From assembly GCA_964016885.1 (NCBI GenBank), contig OZ024743.1, positions 362,762,001 through 362,826,000 on the forward strand: a DNA stretch of 64,000 bases, given 5' to 3'. This DNA comes from Eledone cirrhosa. Lineage: Eukaryota. A program made the position numbers and the translations under genes. The notes under the pieces are model-generated. The model did no database searches and was not told the origin of the DNA. It was given only the letters and a program-made list of their open reading frames with translations. Each line of letters starts with the position of its first letter. The first letter of the stretch is position 1. Below are positions 3,250-56,028 of this stretch, piece after piece.

Positions 3250-3725
<476 letters not shown>

Positions 3726-4304
3726 TATATATACATATATATATATATAGTACAAGAATAAAGGAACAAAGAATCAGTGTTCCATCATAACATTTAATAA
3801 CATATTACATATATATATATATATTCATATATATATATATATATCGTTGCTTTACCATCTTCGTTTGTTTACACTCTCGCTCTTTCCCCTTATTTACGTC
3901 TCCCAACGACTTTCTTTAGCCGTTGCTCACACCAACCGGTGGTCTATGGTCTTTAAAGCGATGAAATACCAATGATGGTTGGAAGATCACTGCTGAAGGA
4001 CTAACTTTATTCATATATATTATAATAATAATAACAACAACAATAATAATAATTGTTTCTACTTTTGGCCACAAGGGCCGACATATAGGGGACAATACAA
4101 AAGACTGGGACAGTGGGGGGTTACATAAATAACGTGTAAACAACATAAATAACAATAACAAAATAACAACAAAAATACAAGAAAGATTCCCCAATTGGGG
4201 GGATGACCACCCAGGGTTCACTCAGGTACCCCACCAATCCTGAACGACCCGACGCTTCGAGAGCACCAGGGAAGGGCACCCCTCTCCTCCTCAAATTCAC
4301 CCAC

Positions 4305-7300
4305 CTACAGGCGTATGATCAGAAAAGGCCCACTCACACGGACCATTCACCCACCTTTCAGCAAATGTACTGGGGGGCAGCACTTCTCACTCCACCCTCA
4401 CCTTTCTTTCCAAGTGAAACTTGAGAAAGTTGATGAGGGATTGGCCGAAGAGAAAAGTGTCTGTCTTCTGTCCTTTCAATCTGGCCCACCATTCAACCTC
4501 TTTCGCTACTGCCACGAGACAGAGGAAAATTGCCTGCCCTTCCTGGCCAAAAGAAGGTGGCGGGTCGATCTTCACAATGGATTCAGCCGATAGCCGGATC
4601 CGTTCTACACGCGACAACAGCTGTTCGACATTACTCCACAAGTCAGTAATGCACGGACACTGGACGAGTGCGTGCAGAACGGTTTCGTCGCTCTGCGCGT
4701 ATCTCGGGCAGGTCAGTCTGACAGCACTTCCGTGCCTGTAGAGTTTATCTCGAACCGGCAGTGCCCCTCGATAGTACTGCCAAGCGAGGGATTTTTGGAA
4801 ATTATCCACGTCCCCGACTCGAAAGTCCTCCGGAACAGACTGTTTAGTTCGACTTCGTCGACGCCCAGAGCCTCTCCGAGAGCGTCGTCTCACTTGCCCA
4901 CCACTAATCCTCTATAGAACTCGAGAGTGGAAGTTTCACTGACCACATTTCCCGCCTGTAGAGAGCAGTGAGTGCCTGGCAACATTCCAGATGCCAGTCA
5001 TCCAGTCTCGGGCTCCTCTTGACCCAGGACTGCAGCTCAGTCAAAGAAACGAGCTGCGGAAAGGCCCGTCTGACAAATGGCGACATAACCTGTTCACCGT
5101 TTAGGCAGAATATCTGGAGATGCCGCAGCCTCAGCGCGTGTCTGCGCATCATTAGCCACAGCATGCCCAGCCCTCCACGTAGAGGGTTCTGGCAGCAGTG
5201 GACCGCCTCACCAACGGAACCTGACCCCTCCACAATAATTTAAAGAGGAGTTGCTCCAAGTTGGCGAGGCGAGAACGGGGGCAAGGGACGACGGTCAGGC
5301 GGTAGTAGATGACGGACGCGATGTACGCGTTCACCATCTCCCCCGACCTTTCAGTGATAGCTTCCTCGCAGCCCATTTCTGGGTGAGACAGGCTACCCTA
5401 CTCGTCACCTCGTCCCAATTCTTATCCGTCTGACCCTAACCAAACCCCGAGTAACTTTACCGGTCCGTCCGTCCAGCGCCCAACGACGCTGTTGGACGAC
5501 ATGGACTTTCCTCCCCAGATGCCGAGTTGCAAGCCCACCGACCTTTCCGGGTTAAGCTTTGCTCCCGTCAACCTTTCATATTCCTCCAATAAGCTGCCGA
5601 CCACCTCGATTTCTGAGATGTCCGATACCATCACGGTGATGTCGTCCGCATAAGCCGGCACAGCCTTTCCGCGTCCTGATTCGAGCGGGATGCCCTGCAA
5701 CAGCTCCAGCCTCCACAGTAAAGGCTCGAGAGTCAATACGTACAGAAGGGAGGAGAGAGGGAAACCTTGACGGACCGATCGGGAGATCTGAAACGGTTCC
5801 GAGAGGTGGCCATTAACTTTGACCACTGACCAGATGCCGCTGTGCATTGCAGCGATCCAGCTTCTGAAGACGGGCCGAAGCCAGCTGCCTTAAGGACAGC
5901 CTCCAGGTACCGATGGTCGACCCTATCGAATGCTTTTGATTGATCTAAATTGATCAGAAACCCACCGAAGCCAGGTTTACACCCTACCCTCTCTATGATA
6001 TATCGAATCAGTTGGAGGTTTTCGTGTATGGACGTGGTTGGGATTGCCAAGTTTGCGCCTCCCCAACCAAATCCTTGACGACAAGCGCCAACCTCTTCGC
6101 TAACACCTTGACCAAAATCTTAAACTCTGTATGGAGCAGGGTATGGGCCTGAAATTGTCTAATGTGTCCCTCTTGTTCTCATCTTTCCATATCAGCGTCA
6201 CTATGCCCCGGCTCACAGAACTGAACTGGGATTACTCTCGTTTTGCTGCCAGTTGCAGTAGAGCGCTTCGAGGAGATTGGAGAACAAGTCTGGCATATTT
6301 ACGTAAAGCTCGTAGGCAGACCATCCAAACCTGGTGACTTGCGCCTCATGCAGCCGACAAGGGCATCCTGAATCTCTCGGCTGAAGTAATCGGCCTTTCG
6401 CAGCGCTCAGAGTCAGCTGTCGAGAGTTGCGGCAAGCCATCGAGGTAGGGACTGAAGTCCGCCACCGTCTCTGACCCGCCACTTCCCCCGAACAACCGAG
6501 CAAAATGTTGGCAAAAGGCCTCACACATCCGCTTGGAGTTGCTCAGCTCGTGTCCGTCTCGGTCCGTCAAAGACTGAATCGTGGTTTTATTACCACGCGG
6601 GCCCATCGAACAGCTTTGGTTCCTTCGTTTCTCAGAACACGCGCCTTAGCTCTGACAATCCAACCTTCGTGTTTCGCATTGAAGAAATGATCTAATGCCA
6701 TTCTCGCCGCTAGTTCGTCAGTTGCAATTCCACTACCAATATCCTCGTCTAACTTATCTAGCAGCTCCCCCTCCTTTCTATTTTTCTCTAACGCTACTTC
6801 TTTGCTAAACCCTATCGACATTACTCTAATCTCTCTTTTGAGAGCCCCCCACCATCTATTGTTGACGACTCCTCCTGTCAACTTTTTCTTAACTAAATTG
6901 TTGACCCGGTCCCAGTAAGCCTTGCGTGCTGGAAACGACATGTTCAGCTTCCAGTAACCAGGTCCTAGCCTACGCGTCTTATCTAGGTCGACCATACAGA
7001 TCACAAACTTGTGATCTGAATAGGCGACCGTATGTAATTGTGGACACCCTATACTATCCTTATCCACTAATCTAATTAGAAACCTATCTAAGTACGATCT
7101 AGATGTACCTAAACGATTTGTCCAGGCCCACACTGGCGCATTAGGGAAATCTAGTCGGTACCTGTCAGACAGTTGGAACTGGTTGATAAGGTACTTGAGA
7201 CTTTTGACAGTCCCAGCGTGCGTCTAAGATGCCGTTCCGGTCCACCGCTAACAGTAAAAGGCGAAACGTACCCAGAAAGGCTTCCAGGCGTCTAAAGAAA

Positions 7301-7660
7301 TCCGGCCGTCCTTCCCCTGTAGGGGCGTAGAGGGCCACTAGTCTAAAGGCACCACCTTCGCTATTGTTCACGTACAGGACCACCAGCTTACCGTCCAGGT
7401 CTTGGAAGATCGACCATACCTCGAGATCCAGACTTTTCCTAAACAGCACCCCCCCCCCCTCTCATTCCCGGCGGACTAATAGATGCAAAGATCTGATAGT
7501 CGTCGAAAATGGGGGCTTGTGCGCGCGTGTCGGAAATCCTGGTCTCGCTGACGGCAAGTGCATCCATTTCTAGAGACCTGAGGTCGTTGAGCAGGTGACC
7601 CTGCTTCCAGGACGATCCCAGGCCTCTAACATTTAAACATCCTACTCTTAATATCGCCAT
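4305..7660 (-). pseudogene. ORF2 of copy A (APE endonuclease + reverse transcriptase), frameshifted
   Basis: Fragments MAILRVGCLNVRGL, SYLDRF, SDHK, GPGYWKLN, LDQSKAFDRVDH, AYADDIT, CPRYAQSDETVLHALVQC distributed over several frames. Confidence 0.9.
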
Positions 7661-7693
7661 GTTGGCAGGCTAAATGAGAGAGGAAAGGTTTAC

Positions 7694-8303
7694 TTACCTC
7701 CCGGGCTCTTGTGAAGGTCGGGTGGTTCGACCTCCAAATTTGGTGGGGTTTCTTTGGGGAATCCCTTTAAAAGCCTACTTGAGGCTTTTACACTAGGTGT
7801 TCCCACGTCGTTGGGGAAGCCCTCCCTAATTGTTTTATAATTGCTTAGTGCCATTCGCACCAGCAAAAGTGTTTGTGGCACCTTGAAGGTGCAGGTGTTA
7901 AATACCTCCCCCTCTTTCTCTATTTCCTTACTTCGTGTTATTAGGTTTTGTGTTCGATTTCCTCACTAACACGAAGTTAGGTGTTGTTATGGTTGTAAGT
8001 TGTTGCTGTGTATTTTCTTTTAGTTGTTTGTGTTAGTGATAGTGTTGTTGGTGGAGATGGTGTTTGTGTTGACGGTTGTGTTTTTGCGGGGGAGGGTGTT
8101 GTAGTATGTGTGTCTGTGTTTGGTGCCAATGTGTCTTTTTTCTTTGCTGTTTGTGTTGGTGTGTGAGATTTCTTCTTGTGTTTTCTTTTTTGTCTTTTTT
8201 CTTTTTTAGCTTTTGGTGTTCCTCCTCATTTTCGCTTAGTGATGAAGAGGTTTCTGTGTTTGTGTCAGACGTAAGTGACAGTGCGTGTATGGGTGTGTGT
8301 GTT

Positions 8304-8355
<52 letters not shown>

Positions 8356-9792
8356 TGAGAGGGAGGGCGGGAGAGCTTCTTTGGAGTGGCCCCTGGGTAG
8401 TCTTGGTTGGCTTTGCAGTTGGTTGTTGTTGGTTCTGCTGGTGTTGCTGCTGCAGATTTTGTTGTTGGTGTTGTTATTTCGCGAAGAGGCCCCGGCGTCA
8501 GCAGCAGTGGAGAATTTTGACCCCTTGCATTTTTCAACAGCTGAGAGTAGGAGGCTCGCAAGTGTGTTTTTTCGCCGCAACCGAAACAGTGCGGCCTTTT
8601 ACCCCTCAGCCATCACTTGTAGAGCCGTCCCGTTTTGGAGGCGGATTTTCTCCAGGATTTTCTTTATCTCTTCAGGTTTTATCTGGAGATACTTCTTGTC
8701 CTGGTTACCTTTATTTGGGCGTCATCTGACACCTCCACAATCACGCATCCCAAGAGCCACCACATATCTAGTCCAGGTGGAATCCTGGGAATGCGGACGC
8801 TAATTGTTCTTTTTCCCATGTGGGAGGGGTACATAATAACCTTGCTGGTTTTGCAAGGGGTTTTTCGAGTGCTTCAAAGCGTTGGCCTCCGACTTAAACA
8901 GCATGGAGATGATGTCGTAATGTTGACCCCTCACTACGTACTCTGTATCTCCTCTGATGCATCTCAGCGCAGCCTCGACGTCCGCTTGGGGAGAGGTTAT
9001 GGCTCTTTTCTTCTCAGCTGTGATGCATCTGAAGACCAGAGTTCTCTTCTCCGCCGCTTCTATGACCTCTGCCGAGACAGTTAAGTTGGCCCAGGTTTGC
9101 TCCTGTTTGATGAGCTTCCATGCCTGAGCCAACTTCGCTTCCTTGTCTGTCAAGTCCATGTTGAGGCATGGCCTTTTCTTTGCTGCTGCCGCAGCGAAAA
9201 TGTTCTTGTTGTTGTTGTTGTTGTTGTCGTTGTTGTTGTTGTTGTCGTTGTTGTTGTTGTTGTCGTTGTTCTTGTTGGTGTTGTTGCTGTTATCACTGTT
9301 GCAGTTGGTTATATCTTTGGGGTCGCCGCTGCTGCTGCTCTCGGTGCAGCTGGAATTGTTGCTGTTGGTGCTGTCGCTGTTTATGTTCTGGTTAGTGGTG
9401 TTAATTTCGTTGTTGTTTTCGTTGATATTGTTGCTGCTGCTATTGTTGTTATTGTTGTTGTTGTTGTGGTTGTCACTGTTGTAGATATTGTTGTCTTTGT
9501 TGTCGTTCTTTCAGTTGTTTTTGTTGTTGTCATTATTGCAGTTGTCGTTGTTGCTGGTGCTGTTGTTCTTGTTCACGACTGTTTTTTTTTTTTTACTGTT
9601 TTTGGTAATGTCGCTGTTGTTGCTGTTGTCATTTTTGTTTATATTTGTGTTCTCACTGTTGTTGCTGGTGTTGTTGCCTGATGTTTTGTTACATTTTAAA
9701 ATTGTTGCGGGAGGGGCAGCGTTTTTAACTGCAAAGTTTGACTCGCTGTCGCAAGTCAGTAAACTCAATGTAGGGGGGCGTGACTCCGCCAT
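7694..9792 (-). pseudogene. ORF1 of copy A (Asn/Thr-rich N-terminus, degenerate zinc knuckle), frameshifted
   Basis: MAESRPP start, (AAC)n-encoded low complexity, RPHCFGCGEKTHLRAS, C-terminal block FPNDVGTPSVK similar to the other copies. Confidence 0.75.
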
Positions 9793-10274
9793 GTTTTTGT
9801 TTTTTTGATAAAAACTTACTTTTAAACACACAAAGTTTAAATATTTGGGCCAAATGGCCCAAATATTATGTGGAGTCCTTTCTTGGGGTTAAAGACTAAA
9901 GTCTTATTTCCCGTTTGAAACAAAAATATTAATGACAAACCTATTTCAAACCGTAGAAAAAACAAATTTACGAGCTCACGATAGTACGTCCGTTCGCTTC
10001 AGCGACCAATAATAATAATAATGATTTCATTTATTGGCCACAAGGGCCGACATATAGGGGACAACACAATAGACAGGGACAGTGGGGGTTTACATAGAGA
10101 TCGAGTAAGTATAAATAACAAAAAACAAAATAACAATAAAAATACAACAATGAAAGTTCCCCAATAAGAGGGATCACCACCCAGGGTTGACTCAAGCACC
10201 CCACCAGTCCTGAGCCACCCGACGCTCCTAGGGCACCCGGGAAGGGAACCCCTCTCCTTCTCGAATTCACCAGC

Positions 10275-13200
10275 CTACAGGCGCATGATCAGAGTAGGCC
10301 CACTCACGCGGGCCATTCTCGCCACATTCACCCACCTTTCAGTAAATGTACTGGGAGGCAGCACTTCTCTCTCCACCCTCACCTTCCTTTCCAAGTGAAA
10401 CTTGAAGAAGTTGATGAGGGATTGGCCGAAGAGAAAAGTGTCTGTCTTCAGTCCTTTCAACCTGGTCCACCATGCAACCTCTTTCGCTACTGCCACCAGG
10501 CAGAGGAAAATTGCCTGCCCTTCCTGACCAAAAGAAGGCGGCGGGTCAATCTTCACTATGGACTCGGACGATAGCCGGATCCGTTCTACACGCGACAATA
10601 GCTGTTCGACATAACCCCACAAGTCAGCAATGCACGGACACTGGGCGAGTGCGTGCAGAACGGTTTCGTCGCTCTGCGCGCATCTCGGGCAGGTTCGTCT
10701 GACAGCACTTCCGTGCCTGTAGAGTTTATCCCGAACCGGCAGCGCCCCCCGGTAGCACTGCCAAGCGAGGGATTTCTGGAAGTTATCCATCGTCCCCGGC
10801 TCGAAAGTCCTCCGGAACATACTGGTCAGTTCTACTTCGTTGACGCCTAGAGCCTCTCCTAGTACGTCATCGTACTTGCCCTCCACTAATCCTCTATAGA
10901 AATCTTGAGTGGAAGTTCCACTGACCTCATTGCCCACCTTGCAGAGTGCAGTGAGCGCCTGGCAACATTCCAGATGCCAGTCGCCCAGTCTCGGTCTCTT
11001 CTTGACCCAGGACTGCTGCTCAGTCAAAGAGATGAGCTGCGGAAAGGCCCGTCTAACAAACGGCGACCACACCTGTTCACCGTTTAGGCAAAATATCTGG
11101 AGATGTCGGAGCCTCAGCGCATGTCTGCGCATCATTAGCCACGGCATGCCCAGCCCTCCACGAAGAGGGTGCTGGCAGCAGATGGACCGCCTCACCAACG
11201 GGACCCGTCCCCTCCACAAAAATTTGAAAAGGAGCCGTTCCAAATTGGCGAGGCGTGGACGGGGGCAAGGCACGACGGTCAGGCGGTAGTAGATGACGGA
11301 CGCGATGTACGCGTTAGCCACCTCCGCTCGACCTTTCAGGGATAGCTTCCTCTCGGCCCATTTCTGGGTGAGAGAAGCCACCCTGCTCGTCACCTCGTCC
11401 CAGTTTTTGTCCGTCTGGAGGTCTGGACCGAACCAGACCCCTAGCAATTTAACCGGTCCGTCCGTCCAGCGCCCGACGACGCTGTTAGACGGCATGGACC
11501 TGCCTCTCCAGGTGCCGAGCTGCAGGCCCACTGACTTTTCCTGGTTGATCATTGCTCCTGTCACCGCTTCGTATTCTCTTAGTGTAGTGCCGATCGCCTC
11601 GATGTGTTTGGCGTTCGACACCACTACGGTGACATCGTCCGCATATGCTGACAAGGATCTTCCACATTCTAGTTCGCGCGGGACCCCCCTCAACGTCTCC
11701 AGTTTGTGCAGTAATGGCTCGAGAGTCAATACGTACAATAGGGACGAGAGGGGACATCCTTGGCGGCCCGAGCGCATGATGTTGAACGGTTCCGAAAGGT
11801 GACCGTTCACTCTCACTACAGAGCAGATGTCGCTGTGCATGGCAGCGATCAAGCCTCTGAAGACGGGCCCAAAGCCAGCCGCCCTCAGGACTGCCGCTAG
11901 GTAACGATGGTCGACCCTATCGAAGGCTTTCGACTGATCTAAATTGATCGATGTATCGCATGAGGTGGAGGTTGTCGTGGATGGATCTGTCGGGAATGGC
12001 GCATGTCTGTGCCTCTCCCACCAGACCACCAACGACAAGCGCCAACCTCTTTGCTAGCACCTTGGCCAAAATCTTGAACTCTGTGTTTAGCAGAGTTATG
12101 GGCCTAAAATTATCTATGTTATCCCTCTTGTTCGGATCCTTTCTCAGCAGCGCCACAGCTCCTCGGCTCACAGAGCTGGGAATTCTCCGGTTCTGTTGCC
12201 AGTTGCAGTAGACGTCCGCCAAGAGGCCTCCGAACAAGTCTGGCATTTGTACGTAAAGTTCATAGGGCAGACCATCTAAACCAGGCGATTTACTCCTTGT
12301 GCAGCCAGTCATTGCCTCCCGTACTTCAGCGGTTGTTATCGGCTTTTCGCAACACTCCGCCTCAGTGGCCGAAAGCCGCGGCAGTCCGTCGAGGTAGACA
12401 CTAAAGTCCATCCCTCGATCCGGCCCGTCACTGCCCCCGAACAGTTGAGCGAAGTGTCGCTGAAAAGCTTCACACATTTGCCCGGGATCGAGTAGCATGC
12501 GCCCGTCGTGGTCCACCAAAGACCGGATCGTGGCTTTGTTGCAACGACGCGCCTCCACCACTCGGGCCCATTGAAAGGCTTTCGTCCCCTCGTGTCTGAG
12601 AGCATGCACCCTAGCTCTGACAACGCAGCCTTCGTGCTTTGCATTGAAGAATTGGTCAAGGGCCAATTTCGCCGCAAGTACGTCGGTCGCGTTGCCTTTG
12701 CTAAGCGCCTCGTTTAATTTTCTAACTAATTCTCCCTCTGCTCTATTTTTCTCTATTGCTAAAGCCTTACTAAACCTAATGGACTCTATTCTAATTGCTC
12801 TTTTCAGAGCAAACCACCACTTGTTGTTGACGATGGCCCCTGTCAACGCCCGCTTAACTAGTTCGCTAATCCGGTCTCTGTAGGCCTTGCGCGCTGGTAA
12901 GGAAGCATTTAGCTTCCAGTAGCCGGGTCCTCGTCTATGAAGCCTATCTAAGTCAAGCACACAGATCACGAATTTCTGGTCTGTGTAGCTGACTATCTTG
13001 AATTGTGGACAGCCTATGCTAGACCTATCTATTTCCCTACAAAATACTCTATCTAGATATGATCTGGATGACACTATGCGATTTGTCCAAGTCCACATTG
13101 GTACATTCGGGAAATCCTATCCGTACCTGTCAGACAGTTCAAAACGCCTGAGCAGGTTGGTGAGACTCTTGCACCCTCCTCCCCTATCCACTAATCCCAC

Positions 13201-13658
13201 ACAGTCCCAGCGTGCATCTAAGATCCCGTTCCAGTCGCCCACTAACACTAAAGAGCGGGACGGTCCAAGAAAGGTCTCCAGACGCCAGAAGAAATCAGGC
13301 CGCCCTGCTCCTGTCGGGGCATAGACGGCCACTAACCTGAAAGCTTGCCCGTCTCCGCTGGTCACGTCCAGCACCACCAACTTACCTTCTGGGTCCAGGA
13401 AGATGGCCCGTATGGCAAGATCCAAACCTCTCCGAAAAAGCACAGCAACTCCCCCCCCCCCGATCCCGGACGGCTGGGAGATGCGTACACCTCGTAGCCG
13501 CCGAAGATCGGTGCGAAGGCCCGTGCTTCGGAGATTCTGGTCTCGCTGATGGCCACTACATCTATGTTTAGTGACCTGAGGTCGTTGAGCAGGTGGCCCT
13601 GCTTCCATGACGACCCCAAACCACGCGCATTTATGCTGCCTATTCTGAGTGAGGTCAT
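10275..13658 (-). pseudogene. ORF2 of copy B (APE + RT + Cys/His domain), few frameshifts
   Basis: ORFs 13362-13658, 13117-13692, 11917-13098 and 10275-12038 with SINARGL, GDWN, SPGLDG, FRPITLLN, QGCPLS, YADD, CPRC motifs. Confidence 0.92.
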
Positions 13659-13692
13659 ATTGAAAAGGAGTGGAAAAGATGGGAAAGACCAC

Positions 13693-15639
13693 TTACCTTA
13701 CTTCTCGTAGAGGAAGGACGGTTTTTCCATCCTTTTCACTGCTGGTGGCCTCCTCAGGAAGGATGTCCTTATAAATCCTCCTGGAGAGTGCTTGTCGGAA
13801 GTCTCCAATGTCTTTGGGGAATTTTTATGTGATGCGACTGATTTGTATGTGTGGAGGTGGTGTGAATTTTTGGGTTGTTGTGTAGTCTTTTTCTGTGATG
13901 CTGGTGTTGTGTTGGATGTAGTGTAATAATTGGTTGTTGTTCAAATTTAATGCTGTGTAGTGTGTATCGTTTTGGTTGTTTTGTTTTGTTTGCGTTTGTT
14001 GTGGGTTTCTTTCTGTTTCGCATTTTGGTGACTTTTGTGGTGTAGGTGATGGTGGTGTTGGGGTTAATGATGGTGATGGTGTTGGTGTTTGGAGTGATGG
14101 GGTTGGTGATACTGGTGTGGGTGGTGGCATATCTGTCCTAACTTTTTTGTTTGTTAATTTATTTGTTTCCCTCTGTATTTTGTTTTTGGAGGGGGAAGGA
14201 AGAGAATTTTTTCTCTTTTGGTTTCTTTTTTTTTTTCCTGACACCGTTTCCCACTACTCGTCGTCACAATCTGTCTCCAGTTGTGATAGGCCGGGGAGTG
14301 GAAAATCCTCCACAGGCGTTAGTTTTGGTTGTGGCGTGGTGGATGGTGTAGGCGCCAGTGCTAGTTCTGAAGCGCTGGGTGGTGGTGGTGTTGGTTTTGC
14401 TGGTGGTGGTGGTGTTGGTTTTGCTACTGTTGCTGGGTTTGTTGCTGTTATAGTTGCTTCTGTTGTTGCTGCTACAGTTGTTACTGCCATCTCTGCTACT
14501 GGTGGTGTTGATGGTTGAGTCACTGGGGTGGGTAGGAGAGGTGGCCTCAACCTTTTAGCCTGAGGGCAGAAAGCCCTTAGGTGGGTTCCTTCACCACAAA
14601 CGACACACCTAGGCCTTCTGCCTTCGACAATTACGGTGAGGTGGCTGCCGTCAGTGAGGTCTATTACCTCTGGGATCTCCTCAATGCTTTTTTGGTCCGC
14701 TTGGATCAGGAGCTCCATCCCAGATCCGGACCAGTTCTCCTGCTTTTCTTTTGCTATTGCTATTATCTTTGTGTTGGCTTCGATGCCGGCGAGGACGGCC
14801 GCTATTAGCCAGGGAATTTCGATGGCTGGTGGAACGTGGGTCACCCTGATCTTTACGAGTCTCTGGCCACAATAGCTTGGGACGAGTGTGAAGTCGTCAC
14901 TTCTTAATGGGGCCATGGAGTGTTCTCTAGCCTCCTCTGGTGTTTCAAAGAACACGTCCACGGTTCCATACTTCTGTCCACGTCTGATGTAGGTTTTTCT
15001 TGCCCACACATGTCCCAAAGCTTTTTGGATTTGGGACTCGGATGCCCGTTCCACTCGGCGCGATTCTACATTAATTGTTCGATGCTCCATTTTATTAGGT
15101 GGCGGGGGGGGGGCTGACCCTGTACCCATCTTTCTTTACCATTTTTTTGGCATTTTCTAATTCCTCCTGAGTTACCGTAAATGCTTCGCACTGTTTTGTT
15201 ACTCTGGCAAAACTCAGGGTGGTTTTTTTAATGTCATTGTTGCTGTTGTTGTTATCGTTATTTTTGTTATTATTAATTTTAGTTTCAGTTGTGGTGGTGG
15301 TGGTGACGTCAGTGGTGTTCGATGTGGATGAGTTCATTTTGGTTGAAAACATTTCGACATTAGGAGTTGATTTATTTTTCCTTTTGTTTCTGTCGTCGCG
15401 GTGGTGGGGGGGGGGAGGGTCGCGGTGGTGGTGGTGGTGGTGGCTTTAACACCTGCAGTCATTGGTAATGGCGGGAAATGAATGTCTGCCTGAGACAAAT
15501 TTAAAATATTGCTACTGCTTATATTTTTTTTAGTGTTGGCAAACGTAGTAACATTTACAATGGTGGTGTCGGTGTGAGGTGTTAATTTGTGAGGAAGGCT
15601 CTCAGCTGCTTGGTGCAGAGGTGAATTAGCCATTTTCAT
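13693..15639 (-). pseudogene. ORF1 of copy B (gag-like, CCHC zinc knuckle)
   Basis: EGRRPRCVVCGEGTHLRAFC in ORF 14254-15129; Pro/Thr-rich linker; ends LREVR-stop. Confidence 0.85.
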
Positions 15640-15842
15640 TTCAAAGAAATTTTTTGATAATCATAAAAGTTTAAATTTTGGGCACAAGGCCCCAATCTTT
15701 TTGGGTGTCCTTTTCGGAAAACAATATATGTGCGCTTATAAACAGTTAACAATAACATTTTCCATAAATGGCAATTTTTAACAAACGGAAATAACAAACC
15801 TTTGCGGAGCTCACGATGATACGATTTACTATGTAGGTCGCC

Positions 15843-15880
<38 letters not shown>
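15843..15880. repeat. (AAT)n microsatellite abutting the 5' end of copy B
   Basis: About 12 perfect AAT units seen directly. Confidence 0.95.
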
Positions 15881-15882
<2 letters not shown>

Positions 15883-17118
15883 GGACGATTTGTTATGTCT
15901 TCATTACGTTTATTGAGTATTGACGCGCGTTTCGCTAATGATCAGCTCAAGGTTCGATCTGTATCGATCTAGCTCGACTCTGGAATCAGAGTTTAGAGAT
16001 GTCTGTAACGATTCACATTCTTTTATGGTGGTCAGTTCTTGTTGTTTTATTGGTGGTTTTGCTATAAGGAATGTTTTGGCATGTGTGATAGGTTGGGGGA
16101 AGGATGATAATTACGAGGTGGTGGGGAGCGATGGTTGGTTTGAGTTGCGGGGGTGTGGCGTTTTGGTTGTTTATGTGTGTTAGATTTTCATGTGTTGATT
16201 TTTTGTAGTACAGCACCGCACTTTTTCATCTCCCATCACGCATAACACATAACAACCTCCACACCCACACCCAGCACCTTCGGCTCACCACATACACGCC
16301 ACAATGTCTATGAAACAGCCAAAACACCACGCACCCGCAACTCACACCAGCCATCGCTCCCCACAACCACCACCACCACCACCACCTATCACATATACCA
16401 AAACATTCCTTATAGCAAAACCACATCTAGTTAAATATAACTGATTATTTAATAGTTATTATGATATTTATAACATCGCTGTTGCAACTTTAACATTAAT
16501 ATATATATATATATATAAGTATGTACACGTACATACATATATGTATACAGACGTACAGTAGTATGTATATATATATACATACATGCACACATATATATAT
16601 GTGTAAGAGTGGGAAATGAAATTTCGTTTCATTTTTTCCGTTTATATATATATATATATTTATTCACTCCGTATAATTTCATCTTTTCTTATATGATATT
16701 AGTTCTGCAGTAAATATCTTTCAAACGTAACACTGGTCAATTTGATGGATTGCTTGTACAATTTATGAATATTACTTCGATAAAAGTCTTTAACTTCCAA
16801 TTCATAATTGGAAAGTTACTAATCTTCCAAATAACATTTAAGTATTGTAATACATCTGACAGCCTGTTATTTGACCAGCTATTTAATTAGATAAGTGAAT
16901 TATATTATCTGTCGTTCTCGAATGACTTGTATTGATATTTTATTAATCGTCTTGCATTTTAATAAAACTCTAATGATTCCTATAGTTTATTCTAACTAAT
17001 AGCAAATTGTTAAATAAAATAACTTGCTGTTGGTGGTATATTCCTATGGAAAGAAACAATTGTTAATGATTAAATGTCTTGAACTTTTAATTTTGGTTTA
17101 TAAGCACATCGTAATTAA

Positions 17119-19065: not shown

Positions 19066-19689
19066 GGATAGCTGTCCGTCCCGATGACACGTGTCGGGTA
19101 ACAACGAAACAGCTTCCTCATGAAATTTACATCAAAGTAGTTTTGGGGGAGATTGAGTATGACACAAGGAGTGTCAAGGCTGACATTTAGAATTGTAGTT
19201 ACAACTCATTTTTCCAGCCGTGTGCACTAGAGCAATGTGAAAAATGTATCTTAGTGAAAGACACAAGGCTGTGCTGGGAATCAAACTCTCGACCTTACGA
19301 TTGCCCATGATCACGCCCATGGAAAGATGAGTTGTAACTAGAATTCTAAATGTCAGCCTTCTTGGTGATGGAGATAGTGGTAATAAAATAAAAATACTAG
19401 AAAAAATTAATGTATAAGTCTGAGAAGGATAGGAGGGTTGACACAGAAGAAACGGTCTAATTGGTCTGTTTTAGTAATAGAAATAGAAGAGTGTATCAAC
19501 ATCAACGACAACAACAACAGCAGTCACAATTGTCATTAAGGGTGATCTTAATGGTAATTACAATGGATGCTTAATGCGTGGCTAAAGCATGTGCTTTTAG
19601 GTGGTCATGTTGCGGTTTATTGTGTGGCTGTGATGGAAATCTTTATGTGTGCGTTCGAATTATTGACGACAACAGCAACAGTAATAATA

Positions 19690-19870
19690 ATTTTTCTACT
19701 TTTGGCACAAGGCCAGCAATTACCCCGGTGCATTACTGGTGCTTTGTTTTATCGACCCCATAAGGATGAAAGGCAAAGTTAACCTCGGCGGGATTTGAAC
19801 TCAGAACGTAAAGGGCCATAACTCTATGCTGTAAAGCATAGTGTCTGAGGCTCTACCGATACTGTCAATA
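19690..19870 (-). mobile_element. tRNA-derived SINE, Nin/Deu-domain type
   Basis: B box GAGTTCAAATCC, central TTGCCTTTCATCCTTATGGGGTCGATAAA, tail GGCCTTGTGCCAAAAGTAGAAAAATTATTATT; homologous to 46025-46215. Confidence 0.8.
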
Positions 19871-22260: not shown

Positions 22261-22521
22261 GCATATATATATATATATATATAGTACATTATGAAGAGAG
22301 AAGAAGTTTAGGTATGATACATCTTATTACTAATTATATCTAAATGTTTCTTCTCTCTTCATAATGTACTTTAAAGCTCTGATACTGGTTCAGTCTAATT
22401 CATTCGGATTGGTTTGTCCCAGTTATTCATAGAGCAACATCGGTTAAGGTTGGCACCATTAACTCAGGGATGGATGTGGATATACTCATGTATCTGTGTG
22501 TTTCTCAATATATTGTATATA

Positions 22522-23020
22522 TATATAATGGAAAATTTGAACAGGAACAAAACACAGAGGCAGTACAACGAATGTTTATTAATTTCACGCTCTGGAGAGT
22601 GGGGTGGTGGTGGGGAACGACGTTTCGGGCATAAGCCCTTCTTCAGGTGAAAAGTGTGTGGGAAGAGAGTTCAAAGGGTGTGTAGGGGAGTAGTGGAGAG
22701 ACATATAGCGAAAAGGGGTGGGAGGAAACGGTGCGAATGAAATTAAAAATAAAAGCATGATCAAAATAAAATAAAATTAAAATGGGATAAAACAGGTGGT
22801 GGAAGGGTGTGGGGTGTGTAGGGGTGGTGGCGGGTGGAGTGGGGAGAGGGAGACGGGGTGTCCGAGCGGGGAGGGCTGAAGGTGGTGTGTGTGTGTAGGT
22901 GTACGTGTGTGTGTGTATGTGAAAGCAAGGGTTGGGGGAAGAACGGGGTTGCATGTTCAGGAAGAGGTGTGTGTGGGGTGGGGTGTAGGTCGGAGTGTGT
23001 GTGCGTGTGTGGATAGAGGG
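22522..23020 (-). repeat. 3' pseudo-LTR of the Penelope-like element
   Basis: Direct repeat of 26828-27329. Confidence 0.9.
22615..22650 (-). ncRNA. Minimal hammerhead motif in the pLTR (second copy 26922-26957)
   Basis: CTGAAGA-A-GGGC ttat GCCC-GAAACGTC; stem I is weak. Confidence 0.65.
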
Positions 23021-23943
23021 GTGGGGGGAGAGGAATCCGGAGGCTGAAGGTGTAAATATGTGGTGGAAAGCACGTGTGTGTGGGGTTTAAGCGTGTTGTG
23101 GGTGTAGGTGGCGTGTGGGAAAAAAAATTTTTTTTTGGTGTGTGTGGGTGAGTTATAAAGGTGATTCCGTAAGATGTGGTTGAAAGGTTGGTAAACTCCT
23201 AGGATGGTAGTTGATTCCGCGGTCAAGCTCCACATACGAGTAATCCATGAAGAGATGGTCGGAAGAGGAGAGATGTGGGGTGCCCGCGCAACAGGAAGTG
23301 CTCAAGGCGGTAGGAGTGCTGTGTGTCTGTGTGTGCTGGGAGGTGGTCAGAGGGCATAGCAGCAGTAGGGTGGAATGGTAAAGGGGCGAGGATGGGTAGG
23401 TGTGAAAGTTGGAGTGAGGAGGGTGTGTGTATTAGTAGAGGTGTTAGTGGGATGAGTGAGTGTGGAGAAAGGGTTGAATGCAGGTGTGAGTGGGGGTTAG
23501 TGGTGGTAGGGTGTGTAGAGTTGGTGGTGTACGAGGGTGTGTGGGTACGTGTGCGTGGGGTTGGGGGTGTTAGTGATGTTAGTTGCGTGTGAGGTGGGTG
23601 GTGTAAGTGGGTGCGTGTATTCGTGTGCTTGGGGTCAGGGGGTGTTAGTGATGTTAGTTGCGGGGTGGTGGGATGGATGTGTGGGGGTGAGGGTTAGTGG
23701 TGGTAGTAGGGTGTGTGTTTAGTATGAGCGCGTGTATATATGTGCCGGTGGGTGTGTGCGTGTGATAAGGAGGGGGGGGGGAGAAGAAGGGAGGGATGTT
23801 AGTATGTTAGTTGGGGAAGTGTGGTCGGATGAGAGGTGGAGTGGAGGTGTTAGTATTGTTAGTTGTGGGGTGGGCGGTGAAAAGGAGGGGTCTGTTAGTG
23901 GTGTTAGTGGGGGATATGTGTGGGGGGAGGGGGCGGTCGAAGG

Positions 23944-26572
23944 CTAAAGGAATAAGGGTGGGGAGTTCAGGCCGGAGGGAGTGTGGGTCTGTAAGATGAA
24001 GATGGTTCTTTGTTCAACTCTGAGGAGATTGGCGGGTGTTCCGTGGCAGTGGAGTAGGCCACAGACTGTGAGATGGCGTGCGGAATGTCCAGGGGCACCA
24101 AAGTGGCGTGTGATGGGGGAACTACCATCTAGACGAATATCCCGGAGGTGCTCAGTGAATCGGTCCGCCAGGCGACGTCCCGTCTGCCGACGTAAGTCGC
24201 GCTGCACTCCGTGCAGCGAAGTCCGTAGACTAGGTTGGAGGAGGTGCAGCGGAAGGCATGCCGGACAGAGAGAGAGTGGCCGTTGGGACCCTGGAAGGTG
24301 GTGGTGTTGGTGATGTGGGGACAGGTGTTGCAGCGGCGACTAGAACAGAGAAAGGAACCGGGGGGGAGCGTGGGTTGGGGGTAGGGAGCTGTGGACGAGG
24401 AGGGTGCGGAGATTGCGTGCGCGTTTGAAGGAGGAGAGTGGTGGGGTTGGGAAGATGTGGGAGGTGGAGGGGTCGGACTGGAGGCGTCGGAAGAGGCGGC
24501 GGATGGTGCGGTGGAGGGGTTAAGGTGGAGGGGTGGTAGGTGATGGGGAAGGGGAGACGGTGGGTGGGTGTGCGGTGGCGTGGGGTGAGGGTGGTGGAGC
24601 GGTGGACAGCACGGGCGCGGGTGAGAGCGGTGTGGACGAGAGAGTGGGGTAACCTCTGCGTTTGAAATGGCTGACTAGGGAAAGGGCCTGGGACCCGAAG
24701 TCAGCATCTCGGCTACAGAGGCGGCGGGGTGGGAGGGGTGGAAGGAGCAGCAGAAGGAGAGAAAGGAGTCGAGCTGTTCTCGGGTGAGGGTCGTGGCTCC
24801 AATACAGTTGTCGATGTAACGACCGTACAGTTCGGGCGTGGGGCCGGTGTACTGGGCAAAGATTTGGGCCTCAACATGGCCAACAAAAAGGTTGGCATAG
24901 TTCGGGCCCATTCTTGTACCCATGGCTACCCCCGTGACCTGTTGGTAAAACTCACCCGAGAAGGAGAAACAATTGAGGGTGAGGACCAGCTCGGCGAGGC
25001 GAAGGAGGGTGGGGGTGGAGGGAATATGGGAGGGGCGAAGGTCGAGGTAGTGTTTGAGGGCGCGTAGGCCGTCGGCGTGGGGGATGACGGTATAGAGGGA
25101 CTTGATGTCTAGGGTGCAGAGGAAGGGCTGTGCCGGGTGGGTAGGTGAAGGAGTCGAAAAGGCGCAGGGCGTGGTTGGTGTCGGAGATGTGGGAGGGGAG
25201 GGTGGTGACAAGGGGGGCGAGGATGGAGTCGAGAAAGGCGGAGATGAGTTCGGTAGGGCAGTTGCAAGCGGAGACGATGGGGCGCCCGGGGTTGTCGGGT
25301 TTGTGGAGTTTGGGGAGAAAGTAGATGGTGGGGGTGCGGGGGTGCGGACGATGAGGTGGGAAGCGGTGGGGGGATGGGGGAGGAGGAGACAAGGTGTTGG
25401 ATGGTGGAGGAAACTTGTTGTTGGTAGAGGGGTGTGGGATCGGAGGGTAGAGGGCGGTAGAAGAGGGGTTACAGAGCTGCCTGAGGGCTTCGGCCGTGTA
25501 GAGGTCCGCGCGCCACACCACTACGGCGCCTCCCTTGTCCGCCGGTTTGATGACGATGTCATCTCGGCTACAGAGGGAGCGGAGAGCGAGGAGTTCCCCC
25601 CGTGAGATATTATTCCGTTTGGAACGGTGGCGGAAGTCGAAACGATTTACGGCGCTACGGCTGGCATCGACGAACGCGTCCAGGGTGCTAAATTGCCCTG
25701 GGGCCGGCGTCCAAGAAGATGGTCGTCGGCCCAGGGCGAGAAACGGGTCTGGGGCGTCCGGAGCCGGTGGCGTTCGGCCGAAATGTGCCTGTAGCTTCGT
25801 GCGTCGCACGAATCGCTCGACTTCCGTTCGGGTGCGGAACTCGTCGCTGTGCGGAGTGTGGGGTATGATGCGAAGGCCTCTACTAAGGAGTGAGCGCTCA
25901 GGTGCGGAGAGGGGGAGGTCAGGGGGTATGGTGACAACAAATGGTGGGGTTTGGGTGTGAGGGGTGGGGGGAGTGGGTAGGGGTGGGGGTCGAGGGAGGG
26001 GTGGAGAGTGGTGGGCTCATGGGGATGGGCGGGTGGTGGTGGATGGGGGTGGTTGGGAGGAGTGAGTGTAGCTTGCGGGCTTTGGTGGAGCTGAGGAAGG
26101 AGGAGAGGTTGTGGTTGAGGTTTTGGATGAAGGAGAGGATGGCTTGGGCGAGGAGGGGTTCGCAGGTGGAGTTAAGGCGGAGGAGGGTGGGGGTCAGTTG
26201 GTGGTCAAGTTGGCGGAGGGTGGAACGGGAGGCGCGGATGGAGTTGCGCATCAGGAGGCGTGAGGATCGGGTGAGGATACGTTGCATGGAGGGGGAAGCG
26301 GCGGGGGAAGGGTGGAAGTGTAGACGGAAGCCGAGGAAGTGAGGAAAAGTGAGGAAAAGTTTGAGGCTAGTATGTAGTTGGTGGAGAAAGGATCTCAGGC
26401 TGGGCATGGTGGGCGTTGGGTGAAAGCAGGGGGAGGGATGAGAAAGCAGGTGTGTGAAGCGGGGTGGAGTGAACGAAGGAGTGAGTGCGAAGGATTGGCA
26501 GAGACGGGGAAAGGAAAATGAAACAGAAAAACGTAAGGAGGGGGAGAGTATACACAGGAAAATTAAAGACAA
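23944..26572 (-). pseudogene. Penelope RT + GIY-YIG polyprotein, frameshifted
   Basis: ORFs 25919-26572, 24952-25809, 24675-25211 and 23944-24207 are collinear parts of one PLE ORF. Confidence 0.88.
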
Positions 26573-26827
26573 AAAATCATAAAGGTAAAAACACAGGCAA
26601 TCGTGAACAAAAAATCATAGAAATAAAATTGTAAGAACACAGGCAAAAAATCATATACGAAAATAAACAAGTACAGTAACAAAATCAAACAAAGGTAATG
26701 CGTGGAAGGAAAGACCAAGTGTGGGAAGGTGTGTAAAGTTCAGAGAGTGGTCACGGTGGATTAGATCGGGGTTGACTCGGTTGTTAAGTTATGTTCCAAA
26801 GGAATGGAAGCCGTGTGAGCGTGTATT

Positions 26828-27329
26828 ATATATAATGGAAAATTTGAACAGGAACAAAACACAGAGGCAGTACAACGAATGTTTATTAATTTCACGCTCT
26901 GGAGAGTGGGATGGTGGTGGGGAACGACGTTTCGGGCATAAGCCCTTCTTCAGGTGAAAAGTGTGTGGGAAGAGAGTTCAAAGGGTGTGTAGGGGAGTGG
27001 TGGAGAGACATATAGCGAAAAGAGGGTGGGAGGAAACGGAGCGAATGAAATTAAAAATAAAAGCATGATCAAAATAAAATAAAATTAAAATGGGGTAAAA
27101 CAGGTGGTGGAAGGGTGTGTAGGGGTGGTCGCGGGTGGAGTGGGGAGAGGGAGACGGGGTGTCCGAGCGGGGAGGGCTGAAGGTGGTGTGTGTGTGTAGG
27201 TGTACGTGTGTGTGAGTGTGTGTTTGTGTGAAAGCAAGGGTTGGGGGAAGAACGGAGTTGCATGTTCAGGAAGAGGTGTGTGTGGGGTGGGGTGTAGATC
27301 GGGGTGTGTGTGCGTGTGTGGATAGAGGG
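26828..27329 (-). repeat. 5' pseudo-LTR of the Penelope-like element
   Basis: Direct repeat of 22522-23020. Confidence 0.9.
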
Positions 27330-31239: not shown

Positions 31240-31800
31240 ATATTTCGTTTCTGAATTTGTTTAGCAAGATTCTTTATCTAAAATCGTGTGTTGAAACCGA
31301 TATTGTTATACTTTGGGAGGGTCATGTTGCCAATAAGAAACACACGCACCTGTTGCTTTCACTTCACTTTATTATAGTAGATTTATAAATTTAGGAATTT
31401 ATAAATTTCCGGTTGGTTGGTTGGTTCCACAACCAGATGGTTGTTTATATATTGTCAAAGTTCTTTCGTCACACATTCTGTGACCTCTTCAGTGACTGGG
31501 GATTCTTTTCTTTGTTTTTGTGCCTCTCCTTTGTTCTGTCCTACGCCATCTTGTTTCTGTGTGTGTGAAACAAGATGGCGTAGGACAGAACAAAGGAGAG
31601 GCACAAAAACAAAGAAAAGAATCCCCAGTCAGTGAAGAGGTCACAGAATGTGTGACGAAAGAACTTTGACAATATATAAACAACCATCTGGTTGTGGAAC
31701 CAACTAACCAACCGGAAATTTATAAATCTACTATAATAAATTGAAGTGAAAGCAACTGGTGCATCTGTTTCTTATTGGCAACATGACCCTCCCAAAGTAT

Positions 31801-31810
<10 letters not shown>
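31240..31810. repeat. Head-to-head inverted pair of family Y pLTRs
   Basis: 31300-31558 is the reverse complement of ~31568-31808; centre CTTGTTTC tgtgtgtgt GAAACAAG. Confidence 0.9.
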
Positions 31811-31851
<41 letters not shown>

Positions 31852-32269: not shown

Positions 32270-32570
32270 GAGAGCTCTATGTGCTATGACCGATGATTCC
32301 ATGGTTACGGCAAATGCAGACAGCCTGAATGGTGAGCAGATCTGGTCCCCGTTTGCCAGACACGTTTTCCTACTACACATCTCTTTGACGTCTTGAATCA
32401 ACTGAAGACTAAGACTGAGTTCCTAGTACTTCTAATATTGTCAGGCACTCATAACCCTCTACCAGATGAACATAAGGTGAGTGTTAGTATTCTATAAATG
32501 ACTAGTGGTGGAGAGAAGTGACGTTGTTCACGAGGAAGCTCTTGACACCGATGAAAATTAACTGGCACTT
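32270..32570 (+). mobile_element. Old, decayed Tx1 ORF2 fragment
   Basis: CTGAATGGTGAGCAGATCTGGTCCCCGTTTG resembles the LNGEQVWSPF segment of copy B. Confidence 0.55.
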
Positions 32571-33084
32571 ATATTCCGCCCCCGTTACCTACGCAAGTTT
32601 GGAATCGGACATCTTGGAGCCACACACAGAATCGCCGAAGAGATTTTACGAGTAAAGCCAACTGGCAGGAAACTTAGATGTTAACCACTATCAATATGCT
32701 TGGATAAAATCCATGAGCCCGGTTGGTCTCGATTGGGGATCCAGCTGGATTAGTTGGAGACGGTTGCTTCTGATAGGACGTTCTGGAAGGTGTGAAATAG
32801 TGGGAGAAGAAGAAGAAGAAGAAGAAGAAGAAGAAGAATCAAGCCCAGCATTGGACTATAGATCCCGAAGTGGTGAAAGATCAAGTGGACCTCGGTGGGA
32901 TACAAAATGAAATTGTCGATAGCTGGATCGAATACTGCAAGGCATTCTACCCGACAATACTGGTTCTTTGAAAATGTATTGTCTTACGCTCTTATTTCAA
33001 ATAAATATCAACTCGGAAATATATTAAAAATAGACTTCAAGTAGTAATAGAAGATTGCGTCAGCATAAAATAGCGTGACTGTTG

Positions 33085-40439: not shown

Positions 40440-40645
40440 GTTTCTACATTAGGCACAAGGCCAGCAATTTGAAAGGAAGGGGAAGTTGATTAAATCGACC
40501 CCAGTGAGTTACTGATACTTTATATTATCGACCCCATAAGGATAAAAGGCAAAGTTAGCCTCGGCAGGATTTGAACTAAAAATGTAAAGGGCCGTAACTC
40601 TATGCTACGAATCATCGTGTCCCACGCTCTACCGATACTGCCAAA
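40440..40645 (-). mobile_element. tRNA-derived SINE, Nin/Deu-domain type
   Basis: Homologous to 19690-19870 and 46025-46215. Confidence 0.8.
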
Positions 40646-41195
40646 CCATATATTATTTATATATTTCATTCACCTTTTTACTGCTTGTTTGCGCCTATTT
40701 CACAATAAAATTTTCTGACTGCTGCATGTCAATATAATTAAATAAAACTGTGACAGCTCATAGCCCCGTCTCCCCACGCAAGATTTTGTTCTCCTCATAG
40801 AAAAGCCATTAAAGTACATATATCTATATCTATTTGTTAATAAATATGTGCTCATTTTCATTGTGAACTAGATTTTATGTGCGTAATATACCCAGCAAAT
40901 AGAGACCTATAATCACTATTTGCTGTTGGTTAATACATGCAGCAGGTGGTAGGTCATACAGTCGTACATTTGATTCAATTTCTTCTGACAAGTTGATATT
41001 GCTTTGGCTATGATATATGCAACACATTAACTTTTCTGCGTTTGTTCAGGCAACAACATACACAGAAACATGCACTCAACATCATGTATTTTCTTCCAAA
41101 TATAATTTGTTAGTCTGAACACCATTGAAATATGTACCACAGCTTTATGAATAAAGGAATTGTAAACACCTGCACCGAACTTCGCAATTGTCCTA

Positions 41196-45911: not shown

Positions 45912-46225
45912 TAGGTTAACTTTGCCTTTCATCCTTACGGGGTCGATAAAATAAAGTACCAGTAATGTACTGGGTAATTGCTGGCCTTGTGCCAAAAGTA
46001 GAAACAATTATATTATTAACATTTAGGGCGGTGGATTGGCAGTATCAGTAGAGGGTCGGACGCCATGCTTTTACGCAAAGAGTTATGTCCCTTTACGATC
46101 TGAGTTCAAATCCCGCCGAGGTTAACTTTGCCTTTCATCCTTACGGGGTCGATAAAATAAAGTACCAGTAATGTACTGGGTAATTGCTGGCCTTGTGTCA
46201 AAAGTAGAAACAATTATATTATTAA
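45912..46225 (+). mobile_element. Tandem SINEs: 5'-truncated copy (45912-46010) + full copy (46025-46215), Nin/Deu-domain type
   Basis: A box TGGCAGTATCAG, B box GAGTTCAAATCC, GCCTTTCATCCTTACGGGGTCGATAAAATAAAGTACCAG; TATATTATTAACAT repeated at all three junctions. Confidence 0.85.
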
Positions 46226-46689
46226 CATAGTACATGTAAAAATGGTGGAGTTTACCGTAAAAAGAATAATTAACTTAATAACTCCTTGGTTAGTAAATAT
46301 ACTTCAATAATTGAATTTCCTTGATCTTCTCCCTCTTGTCACTCAGACAATCGCTGTTTTCATTTTACATTAATTTAAATCAATTACAACAATTTTCTTT
46401 CCTATTTTCTTTAATCATTATCAAACATATATCCACCAAGTTAATATGATTTGTTATACCTTTGTATCCGTTTGTCTGTTATCTATCTATTTTCTGACAG
46501 CTATTGAGATTTAGGTTCTGTTGTTCTTTTCCGAAAATAAATGCTTTGAAAAATCTACATAAATAGCTAATTATATCATAGTATGACAGTGTGGTAGAAA
46601 GGTAGACAGACAGATAGAGAGAGGCAGGTAGATAGGTGAGGAAGATATATAGGTAGAGAGGTAGGTGCGGAGGTAGATAGATACACAGA

Positions 46690-49600: not shown

Positions 49601-49772
49601 GCACCTCAAAGTCATCGAAGGTAGGGGCCAGCTGCCGCACGACGCTGATCCGAGTCTCACAGATAACCATTACATTTATACCACGTGACCTGAGGTCATT
49701 TAGAAGCTTTGCTTGCTTCCAAGTTGAGCCCAGGCCACGTACATTCAAATATCCTACTCTTAACACATCCAT
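46690..49772 (-). pseudogene. ORF2 of copy C (782 uninterrupted codons, then frameshifts)
   Basis: ORF 47424-49772 with APE and RT (QGCPFS, YADD); continues in 46571-47530 and 46479-46835. Confidence 0.92.
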
Positions 49773-50513
49773 GTGGGCGGCAGAGCCAAAGGAGAGTGTA
49801 GAGACCTACCTTTCTGCTTCCCGGGGTTCGGGTCGCACGACTTCCATGGGGTCGGGGGTGTTGGGTGAAGGGGTGTCTTGTGGTGGTGTGGGGTTGTCAG
49901 TGTGGGTGGGGTTGGGGTGTTTGGAGTTGTGTTGGGGAGGGGAAGGGGAGGGGGAAAGCTTTTTAGGAGGACGCGGTTTATGGGTTTGACAGAGGGTGGT
50001 CCTACGTCCTCCTTAAAATCCTTTTTTAGTTTTTGGTAGAGGTTCATTGGGACCTTTATTAATTTTAATTGTGGATTGTTTTCTGAAAAAACAAAATTTA
50101 CCCCTTCGGTTTGTACCGAAGGGTTATTGTTTATGAGTTCATTTAATTTATTATTGTTTCTGTTGATGTAAGTATAGTGTAATGTCTTTTTTTCGGATGG
50201 TGTGAGTGTTTCGAAGAGGGGAGGGGCAGGTTTGGTTTTGTTTGTTGCTGGAGGGGTGTTTTGTGTTTTGTTGGATTGTGTTGACATTTGGGTAGGGGCT
50301 GTTGGGCCTTGTGTGTTTTGCACATGTTTTCTTTTTTTTCTTTTAATCTGTCTGAAGGACTCCGTTTCTTCCTCCGAATTCGTTGGGTTATCTTCAGTGT
50401 TGGAGGGAACAGGTATGTTTGCTGGTAGTGTTTCCGTGTTAGTTTTCTTTGGGGGGGGGGGATGTCACTATGTTAGACTGTGTTGTGTGTTGTGGCTGCG
50501 GTGGTTGTGTTGT
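46690..50513 (-). mobile_element. Tx1/L1-clade retrotransposon copy C, 5'-truncated and lacking its 3' end; (TATC)n-associated
   Basis: Begins mid-ORF1 directly after the (TATC)n tail of D; ORF2 breaks off after HCPGVADLC into degenerate TATC/TACC repeats; closely similar to copy F. Confidence 0.92.

Positions 50514-50568
<55 letters not shown>
50514..50568. repeat. (GATA)n microsatellite between copies C and D
   Basis: About 13 perfect units seen directly. Confidence 0.95.
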
Positions 50569-54220: not shown

Positions 54221-54257
54221 GTTGGTTCTGAAAAGTTAAAAGAGGAGAAGAAAACAC

Positions 54258-55033: not shown

Positions 55034-55069
<36 letters not shown>

Positions 55070-55995: not shown

Positions 55996-56028
<33 letters not shown>

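Follow-up and report, generated by a model that had tools for sequence, protein, structure and literature searches.

Tx1-like retrotransposons stacked in ATT and ATCT repeats of the octopod Eledone cirrhosa

The ATT stack

A 64,000-nt stretch of the genome of the octopod Eledone cirrhosa (assembly GCA_964016885.1, contig OZ024743.1, positions 362,762,001 to 362,826,000), referred to here as the window, contains two Tx1-like long interspersed nuclear elements (LINEs), A and B, stacked head-to-tail in a microsatellite. Read on the minus strand, an (ATT)12 run (15843-15878) is followed by element B (10023-15842), an (ATT)5 run (10008-10022), element A (4054-10007) and an (ATT)4(GTT)3(ATT)3 run (4024-4053). 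Both elements begin with GG, immediately 3' of ATT units, and neither has a poly(A) tail. This layout was first given in a preliminary description of the locus, and the coordinates agree with it. So does the nucleotide sequence with its claim that A and B are two insertions: they are only 77% identical across 3692 nt, which excludes a tandem duplication, and the divergence is unevenly spread along the elements. The statement that both are full length holds in so far as 5' untranslated region (UTR), open reading frames (ORFs) 1 and 2 and 3'UTR are all spanned, but both elements are broken by frameshifts and stops. The DNA upstream of the (ATT)12 run has no self-match to Tx1 3' ends. Just upstream of this run, the minus strand of window positions 15879-15940 contains AATAAA and a motif that by eye resembles the 3' part of the repeat in the Penelope-like element at 22514-27329.

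The features of A and B given here all read in minus-strand direction. Each element has a 5'UTR of about 210 nt. The 5'UTR of B (15634-15842), with GG at its start, shares short motifs with that of A, and not with that of the relative F described below. ORF1 of B (13693-15633, broken) has a low-complexity N-terminus, a conserved core, a single C-x2-C-x4-H-x4-C knuckle and a Pro/Thr-rich tail. The knuckle is kept in B, D and F, and has lost its last Cys in A, the ORF1 of which (7690-9792) is also broken and has an Asn-rich N-terminus. ORF2 of B (10275-13658) spans an apurinic/apyrimidinic-type (APE) endonuclease, a reverse transcriptase (RT) and a C-terminal zinc finger. It is damaged by two frameshifts, one of which is a deletion in the RT, and one stop, and its endonuclease has Gln in a conserved position occupied by His in the other copies. 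ORF2 of A (4305-7660) is broken by at least 14 frameshifts and 2 stops. Both elements are dead. The 3'UTR of B (10023-10274) contains two short hairpins that are conserved in A, D and E, one of them immediately 5' of AATAAA; covariation support for these hairpins was not found among the four copies, in which the pairs are mostly invariant. In B, AATAAA (10035-10030) lies 7 nt upstream of the repeats, and the spacing in B, D and E is 3-7 nt. We looked for a hepatitis delta virus (HDV)-like RNA, or any other known one, at the 5' ends that begin with GG, and rejected the idea, as an Rfam search of 3500-17000 returned 20 matches, all below the gathering score; two of them are inside element A, both in low-complexity DNA.

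Domain content and, for B, the RT score place A and B among the Tx1-like (L1 group) retrotransposons that lack long terminal repeats (non-LTR), in line with the initial assignment. Pfam matches are RVT_1, zf-RVT and Exo_endo_phos, the last of which scores below cut-off in the broken B piece and above it in copies C and D. Among PDB entries, L1 ORF2p matches best, and better than R2. For the RT and C-terminal piece of B, the match to an alligator 'transposon TX1 uncharacterized 149 kDa protein' (an automatic name) has a score of 189 bits, and that to human L1 ORF2p one of 75 bits. A separate ORF1 with a CCHC knuckle is a Tx1-type feature. For ORF1, no Pfam family scored above cut-off, and in a homologue search of longer proteins none of the 682 candidates gave a score. 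Among named proteins, the nearest match comes from Argonauta hians (61% identity to copy C), which also indicates an octopod host. In a tree of annotation-named proteins, drawn with neither curated Kibi or Koshi sequences nor an L1 outgroup, the window copies are separate from fish and reptile Tx1-like proteins.

ATCT relatives and the choice of repeat

Four further copies, C to F, about 70% identical to A and B at the nucleotide level, are located at 46.7-64 kb and form two stacks in ATCT repeats. One, D-(ATCT)13-C, is on the minus strand; the other, E-(ATCT)13-F, is on the plus strand. D (50568-56152) is probably 5'-truncated, lacking a long 5'UTR, and is preceded by (ATCT)4 (56168-56153) and a decayed ATCT-like tract. 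C (46684-50513) is truncated at both ends. It begins in the middle of ORF1, exactly after (ATCT)13 (50567-50514), and from there on is 95% identical to F. It stops about 700 nt short of the 3' end (window 46684), just after an ATCT-like word of its own sequence, and the DNA beyond is decayed ATCT-like; internal priming or a later deletion may be responsible. The density of ATCT-like sequence in the two outer flanks of D and C is 0.35 and 0.44, against a background maximum of 0.155 in 726 windows, so that these flanks have the appearance of an ancient host array which the stack has divided. On the plus strand, E (58006-61523), which is 5'-truncated and joined to a SINE-like (short interspersed nuclear element-like) repeat, is followed by (ATCT)13 (61524-61577). 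F (61578-64000) has a full 5' end directly after this run, and runs off the window.

Association between these elements and their repeats is close. In a census of 78 microsatellite loci within the window, with ATT and ATCT loci counted from at least 4 units, all three ATT-type and all three ATCT-type loci touch a Tx1 end, compared to none of the 72 others, 36 of which are AT loci. Since ATT runs also make up only 0.23% of the non-Tx1 bases in the window, the adjacency is not due to chance. The cognate repeat is found at the 5' junction of five of the six copies (2/2 for the ATT type, 3/4 for the ATCT type), and at all four intact 3' ends, none of which has poly(A). The preliminary description had named random 5' junctions as the finding that would speak against a repeat preference, and the 5' junctions in the window are the contrary. 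As five of six are cognate, including that of the clearly 5'-truncated C, we regard a local repeat preference of these elements, by whichever route it comes about, as very probable.

Order of insertion

Element A carries private changes at 56 of 505 otherwise invariant residues, B at 22 of 474 (p = 2e-4), and ORF2 is broken 16 times in A and 3 times in B (p = 0.004). A is therefore older than B. Because the older element is located downstream, B must have landed in repeats on the 5' side of A, and not in a tail. This contradicts the suggestion that each tail served as the next target, at least for A and B. The phrase may describe the other stack on the plus strand, where F would have followed E, since E exceeds D in age (p = 0.013) and F closely resembles C. 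Between C and D, no significant difference in age was seen (p = 0.70). The array itself matters for landing, on either side of a resident element.

A shared 3' module in otherwise diverged elements

The identity between the A and B proteins varies along the elements. It is 24-27% for ORF1 (aligned core pieces only), 65% for the endonuclease, 61% for the linker, 74% for the RT and 88% for the C-terminal part. At the nucleotide level, mismatch falls from 26.8% (565/2108) to 10.0% (120/1199) at position 11499 of B and 5506 of A. The log-likelihood ratio for the step is 71.7, compared to a maximum of 7.0 in 200 permutations, and no such step is present in five control pairs. The 3' module so defined (4054-5506 in A, 10023-11499 in B) comprises the post-RT domain, the zinc finger and the 3'UTR, with about 90% nucleotide identity in the coding part and 81-85% in the 3'UTR. 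Differences in the shared part are distributed over codon positions 1, 2 and 3 as 18/27/67 (p = 9e-9). This bias points to an exchange of the 3' end between active lineages, prior to insertion, and led us to reject gene conversion after insertion as the source of the shared part. Judged from these patterns, A and B share a recently exchanged 3' third. Their earlier description as one subfamily is thus too simple: it applies to the 3' third, and not to ORF1, with about 25% identity, or to the endonuclease.

Repeat type tracks kinship, in that A and B (ATT) are separate from C, D and E (ATCT) in both the endonuclease tree (94/96) and the C-terminal tree (support for A+B 100/98). It is in the 3' module, and not in the endonuclease, that the two ATT users are most alike; the endonuclease of A and B is 57-63% identical to that of the ATCT copies. 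One tree (94/97) favoured the ATCT group as the source of the RT of A. This origin was not upheld: diagnostic residues were divided 4:4:2, and the grouping A+B+P0001 withstood the approximately unbiased (AU) test (p = 0.144).

Arrays of a sister lineage

A scan of genome contigs identified 46 loci with related elements, 44 of which (L001-L044) are on contigs of CAXXMW01. This is the record of a bacterial metagenome-assembled genome (MAG), yet many of its contigs look eukaryotic. The CAXXMW01 relatives are 41-43% identical to the window copies at the amino-acid level and sister to them (Shimodaira-Hasegawa-like approximate likelihood ratio test, SH-aLRT, 100), and form long head-to-tail arrays of near-intact Tx1-like elements. 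None of 49 unique 3' ends from 16 contigs has a poly(A) run of at least 7, and the sole simple-repeat match at these ends is a T run. Instead, AATAAA, which is preceded by a hairpin similar to those in the 3'UTRs of the window copies, is followed by a junction word of about 17-19 nt that is specific for each array. Three 5'-truncated units begin directly after the junction word, two of them with the same breakpoint. Of three array starts, two have the word once more in their upstream flank (19 and 16 nt), in the way expected of a target duplication.

In eight array types, the endonucleases are 90-96% identical and their hairpin is the same, save for one residue in one array, and the junction words are unrelated (at most 7 of 18 positions match). 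A sequence-specific endonuclease is therefore not needed for stacking, and stacking without poly(A) is common across the lineage. Many neighbours in these arrays are more than 99% identical, others 94-97%. Unequal exchange probably also contributes to the sister arrays, which resemble R1 arrays in this respect (PMC5932611).

At a further locus, L045 (2325-2488, 9250-9426), a more distant Tx1-like element is found immediately downstream of a gene for U1 snRNA, and another U1 follows farther along. The element possibly represents a family that targets U1 loci.

Possible mechanisms

We lean towards the view that A, and then B, inserted by target priming into one pre-existing (ATT)n array, by way of a nick and the annealing of a read-through repeat tail. 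Since AATAAA is found 3-7 nt before the repeats, the poly(A) signal at the very end of the element would let transcription run on through a few units of the flanking repeat. The purine-rich strand would be nicked by the APE endonuclease, the repeat tail of the RNA would base-pair with the nicked strand, and reverse transcription would begin inside the repeats. The expected outcome is an insertion without poly(A), with the target regenerated on both sides, so that later copies could stack in either direction. A nick of moderate selectivity and RNA-DNA annealing would both contribute to specificity, and it may be the tail that discriminates ATT users from ATCT users. Landing in a repeat array is supported by the absence of a Tx1 tail upstream of B or D, and by the truncated C, which abuts (ATCT)13. 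The (ATT)12 array may itself be the tail of some older element.

Several observations weigh against this view of tail annealing. The sample consists of six copies from one window, picked for being stacked, with only two copies of the ATT type, and 5'-truncated ATT copies are not among them. The AATAAA of A is degenerate. E joins the SINE-like repeat outside ATCT via 3 shared bases, although an internal deletion near this junction makes a later deletion possible as the cause. In the sister lineage, the junction word is missing from the flank of the third array start, despite being common to five contigs, and the neighbours with more than 99% identity could be due to unequal exchange instead of re-insertion. 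Finally, the sister position of A and B in the endonuclease tree fits a specific endonuclease as well.

Indeed, specificity could be a matter of the endonuclease only, as the preliminary description proposed for ATT, with an enzyme in A and B that reads (AAT)n, another in C-F that reads (AGAT)n, and trailing repeats that are plain target DNA. In published accounts, it is chiefly the endonuclease that determines where non-LTR elements insert (PMC4494074, PMC3812793), and the tip of the DNA-probing hairpin (PMC1950540), mapped here by counting from L1 anchors, is Leu in A and Ile in B, as opposed to Ser in C, D and E. Nevertheless, we consider this explanation rather unlikely. The endonucleases of A and B are hardly more similar to each other (65%) than to those with the other target, and P0003, whatever its target may be, groups with A and B in the linker tree, yet has Ser. 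Moreover, the specificity of Tx1L was not carried over by a hairpin graft (PMC1950540), and sister arrays with the same hairpin stack at unrelated words.

It is less probable still that the elements have no target preference, that the repeats are element-made tails, together with 5' repeats of full-length transcripts, and that stacks form by passive accumulation or tail recombination. The repeat is indeed present on every intact 3' end, those of A, C and F among the five cognate 5' junctions adjoin the 3' run of another element, and the 5' end of E is in a SINE-like repeat. Against this reading are the exact contact of the 5'-truncated C with its repeat, the cognate repeats upstream of B and D where there is no Tx1 tail, the decayed ATCT-like DNA at both outer ends of D and C, and the absence of a Tx1 end at any of the other 72 microsatellite loci, the far commoner AT loci included. 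Least plausible, and in our opinion very improbable, is an origin of the A/B pair by tandem duplication, by template jumping in one event or by local gene conversion after insertion. The proximity of two 90% identical 3' thirds would be in its favour, but it is at odds with the divergence of ORF1, the difference in age and the third-position bias in the shared part.

As an extension of the annealing model, target choice might be inherited with the RNA. We put this forward only tentatively, with no more confidence than the endonuclease-only explanation. The transcript would take about 15-20 nt of the donor flank as a base-pairing guide. A founder in ATT or ATCT would then turn 'microsatellite-specific' with little or no change in its endonuclease, a founder in unique DNA would build self-targeting arrays, and a swap of the 3' module could move the specificity from one family to another.

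A splice-donor-like motif at the end of ORF1

Each of the six window copies carries AG/GTRRGT, which matches the splice-donor consensus, where ORF1 ends (7697, 13696, 49809 and 54261 on the minus strand, 58044 and 63714 on the plus strand). In B, AG/GTAAGT overlies the ORF1 stop, and a pyrimidine-rich spacer separates it from the ORF2 ATG (13659-13698, minus strand). Across the window copies, the motif is 37-46 nt upstream of the ORF2 ATG, again with a pyrimidine-rich spacer, and the stop codon varies. In the sister lineage it is present at 48 of 50 unique ORF1-end junctions, there after the stop, and it is the sole such site per unit in three units checked. The motif could give rise to an ORF1-only mRNA, or bind U1. 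Spliced ORF1-only copies were not found in the sister arrays, where none of 50 ORF1-end motif matches (overlapping loci not de-duplicated) lacks the donor. Fusion of ORF1 and ORF2 via a short intron was rejected, given the short spacer and a candidate AG that is in frame only in D. The ORF2 stop of A, B, D and E, CCTGTAG, is in a weak acceptor-like context. Our literature search did not find a splice donor at a Tx1 ORF1 end.

Other repeats in the window

At 32328-32615 (plus strand) are the old and decayed remains of part of a Tx1-like C-terminal domain, with 40% identity to P0001. A nearby (AGA)11 run follows a different repeat and was not counted as a Tx1 junction. At 22514-27329 (minus strand), there is a GC-rich element with 516-nt direct repeats (95%), a weak RT match and (AT)n at its flanks, which we take to resemble a Penelope-like element, with what is presumably a hammerhead-like motif in the repeat. 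An imperfect inverted repeat (79% over 120 nt) is located upstream of B, at 16053-16424. A repeat of about 280 nt, which occurs at 658-956, 1226-1490, 3344-3642, 31300-31848 and 56717-57002, is always bounded by (AT)n, and once forms an inverted pair; it is perhaps an AT-targeting element. SINE-like repeats, presumably of a family typical of octopus, are present at 19682-19869, 40498-40648, 45913-46228 and 57830-58005, the last of which is joined to E.

Comparison with known systems and implications

Microsatellite-targeting Tx1 elements as such are already known. Kibi and Koshi are teleost Tx1-clade families in (TC)n and (TTC)n, and a crocodilian Tx1 group is found at (TTCC)n/(TTTC)n (PMC4494074, PMC3812793). 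A Tx1 family is considered target-specific when the target is present in more than 20% of flanks (PMC4494074). Like these elements, A-F are Tx1-type two-ORF APE elements in a microsatellite. They differ in their octopod host and in their targets, (ATT)n and (ATCT)n, which are split between families with only about 70% nucleotide identity. Kibi- and Koshi-type targets in the window (two AG loci and one AAG locus) do not adjoin a Tx1 end. Our literature search found no Tx1 element directed to ATT or ATCT, although existing catalogues of targets (Repbase; Kojima and Fujiwara 2004; Fig. 3 of PMC4494074 and its supplements) may already hold these two. In Octopus vulgaris, 13 recently active L1-Tx1 families with 421 insertions have been reported (PMC13282606). 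They are of the same broad class as A and B and in a similar host.

Some features are shared with elements of other clades. Dong elements belong to the R4 clade, and have a single ORF with a C-terminal restriction-like endonuclease. They target TAA microsatellites (PMC3812793), and Dong-R4 is present in Octopus (PMC13282606, PMC9115989; the available text of the latter does not mention Tx1). Dong thus uses the same repeat class as A and B, which in contrast have two ORFs and an N-terminal APE domain. SART1Bm and R1Bm are not Tx1-type, but members of the R1 clade. For both, a model has been put forward in which target-like RNA pairs with the nicked target and determines where reverse transcription starts (PMC7265360), which provides an APE-type precedent for RNA-target annealing. 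However, accurate insertion of SART1 requires a long poly(A) (PMC7265360), whereas no poly(A) is left in A and B. Tandem dimers of transposable elements (TEs) that arise by double insertion are known from R1 arrays (PMC5932611) and from tandem SINEU-3 elements that sandwich a target site duplication (PMC4494074). As here, copies are arranged head-to-tail with the target between them, and 5'-truncated partners are included. In the A/B stack, however, the partners are of different families and different age, and the junction is a microsatellite.

The route by which APE-type LINEs come to target microsatellites is not well understood (PMC3812793). The combination of close relatives (about 70% nucleotide identity) on two repeats, a natural 3' recombinant and sister arrays makes it testable whether endonuclease or tail is decisive. 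If only the endonuclease matters, two further targets are added to a known list. Should the tail act as the guide, a single step could be enough to switch the specificity, and changes in the RNA could reprogram it. This would bear on the evolution of LINEs, the origin of tandem TE arrays and tools for RNA-templated gene insertion.

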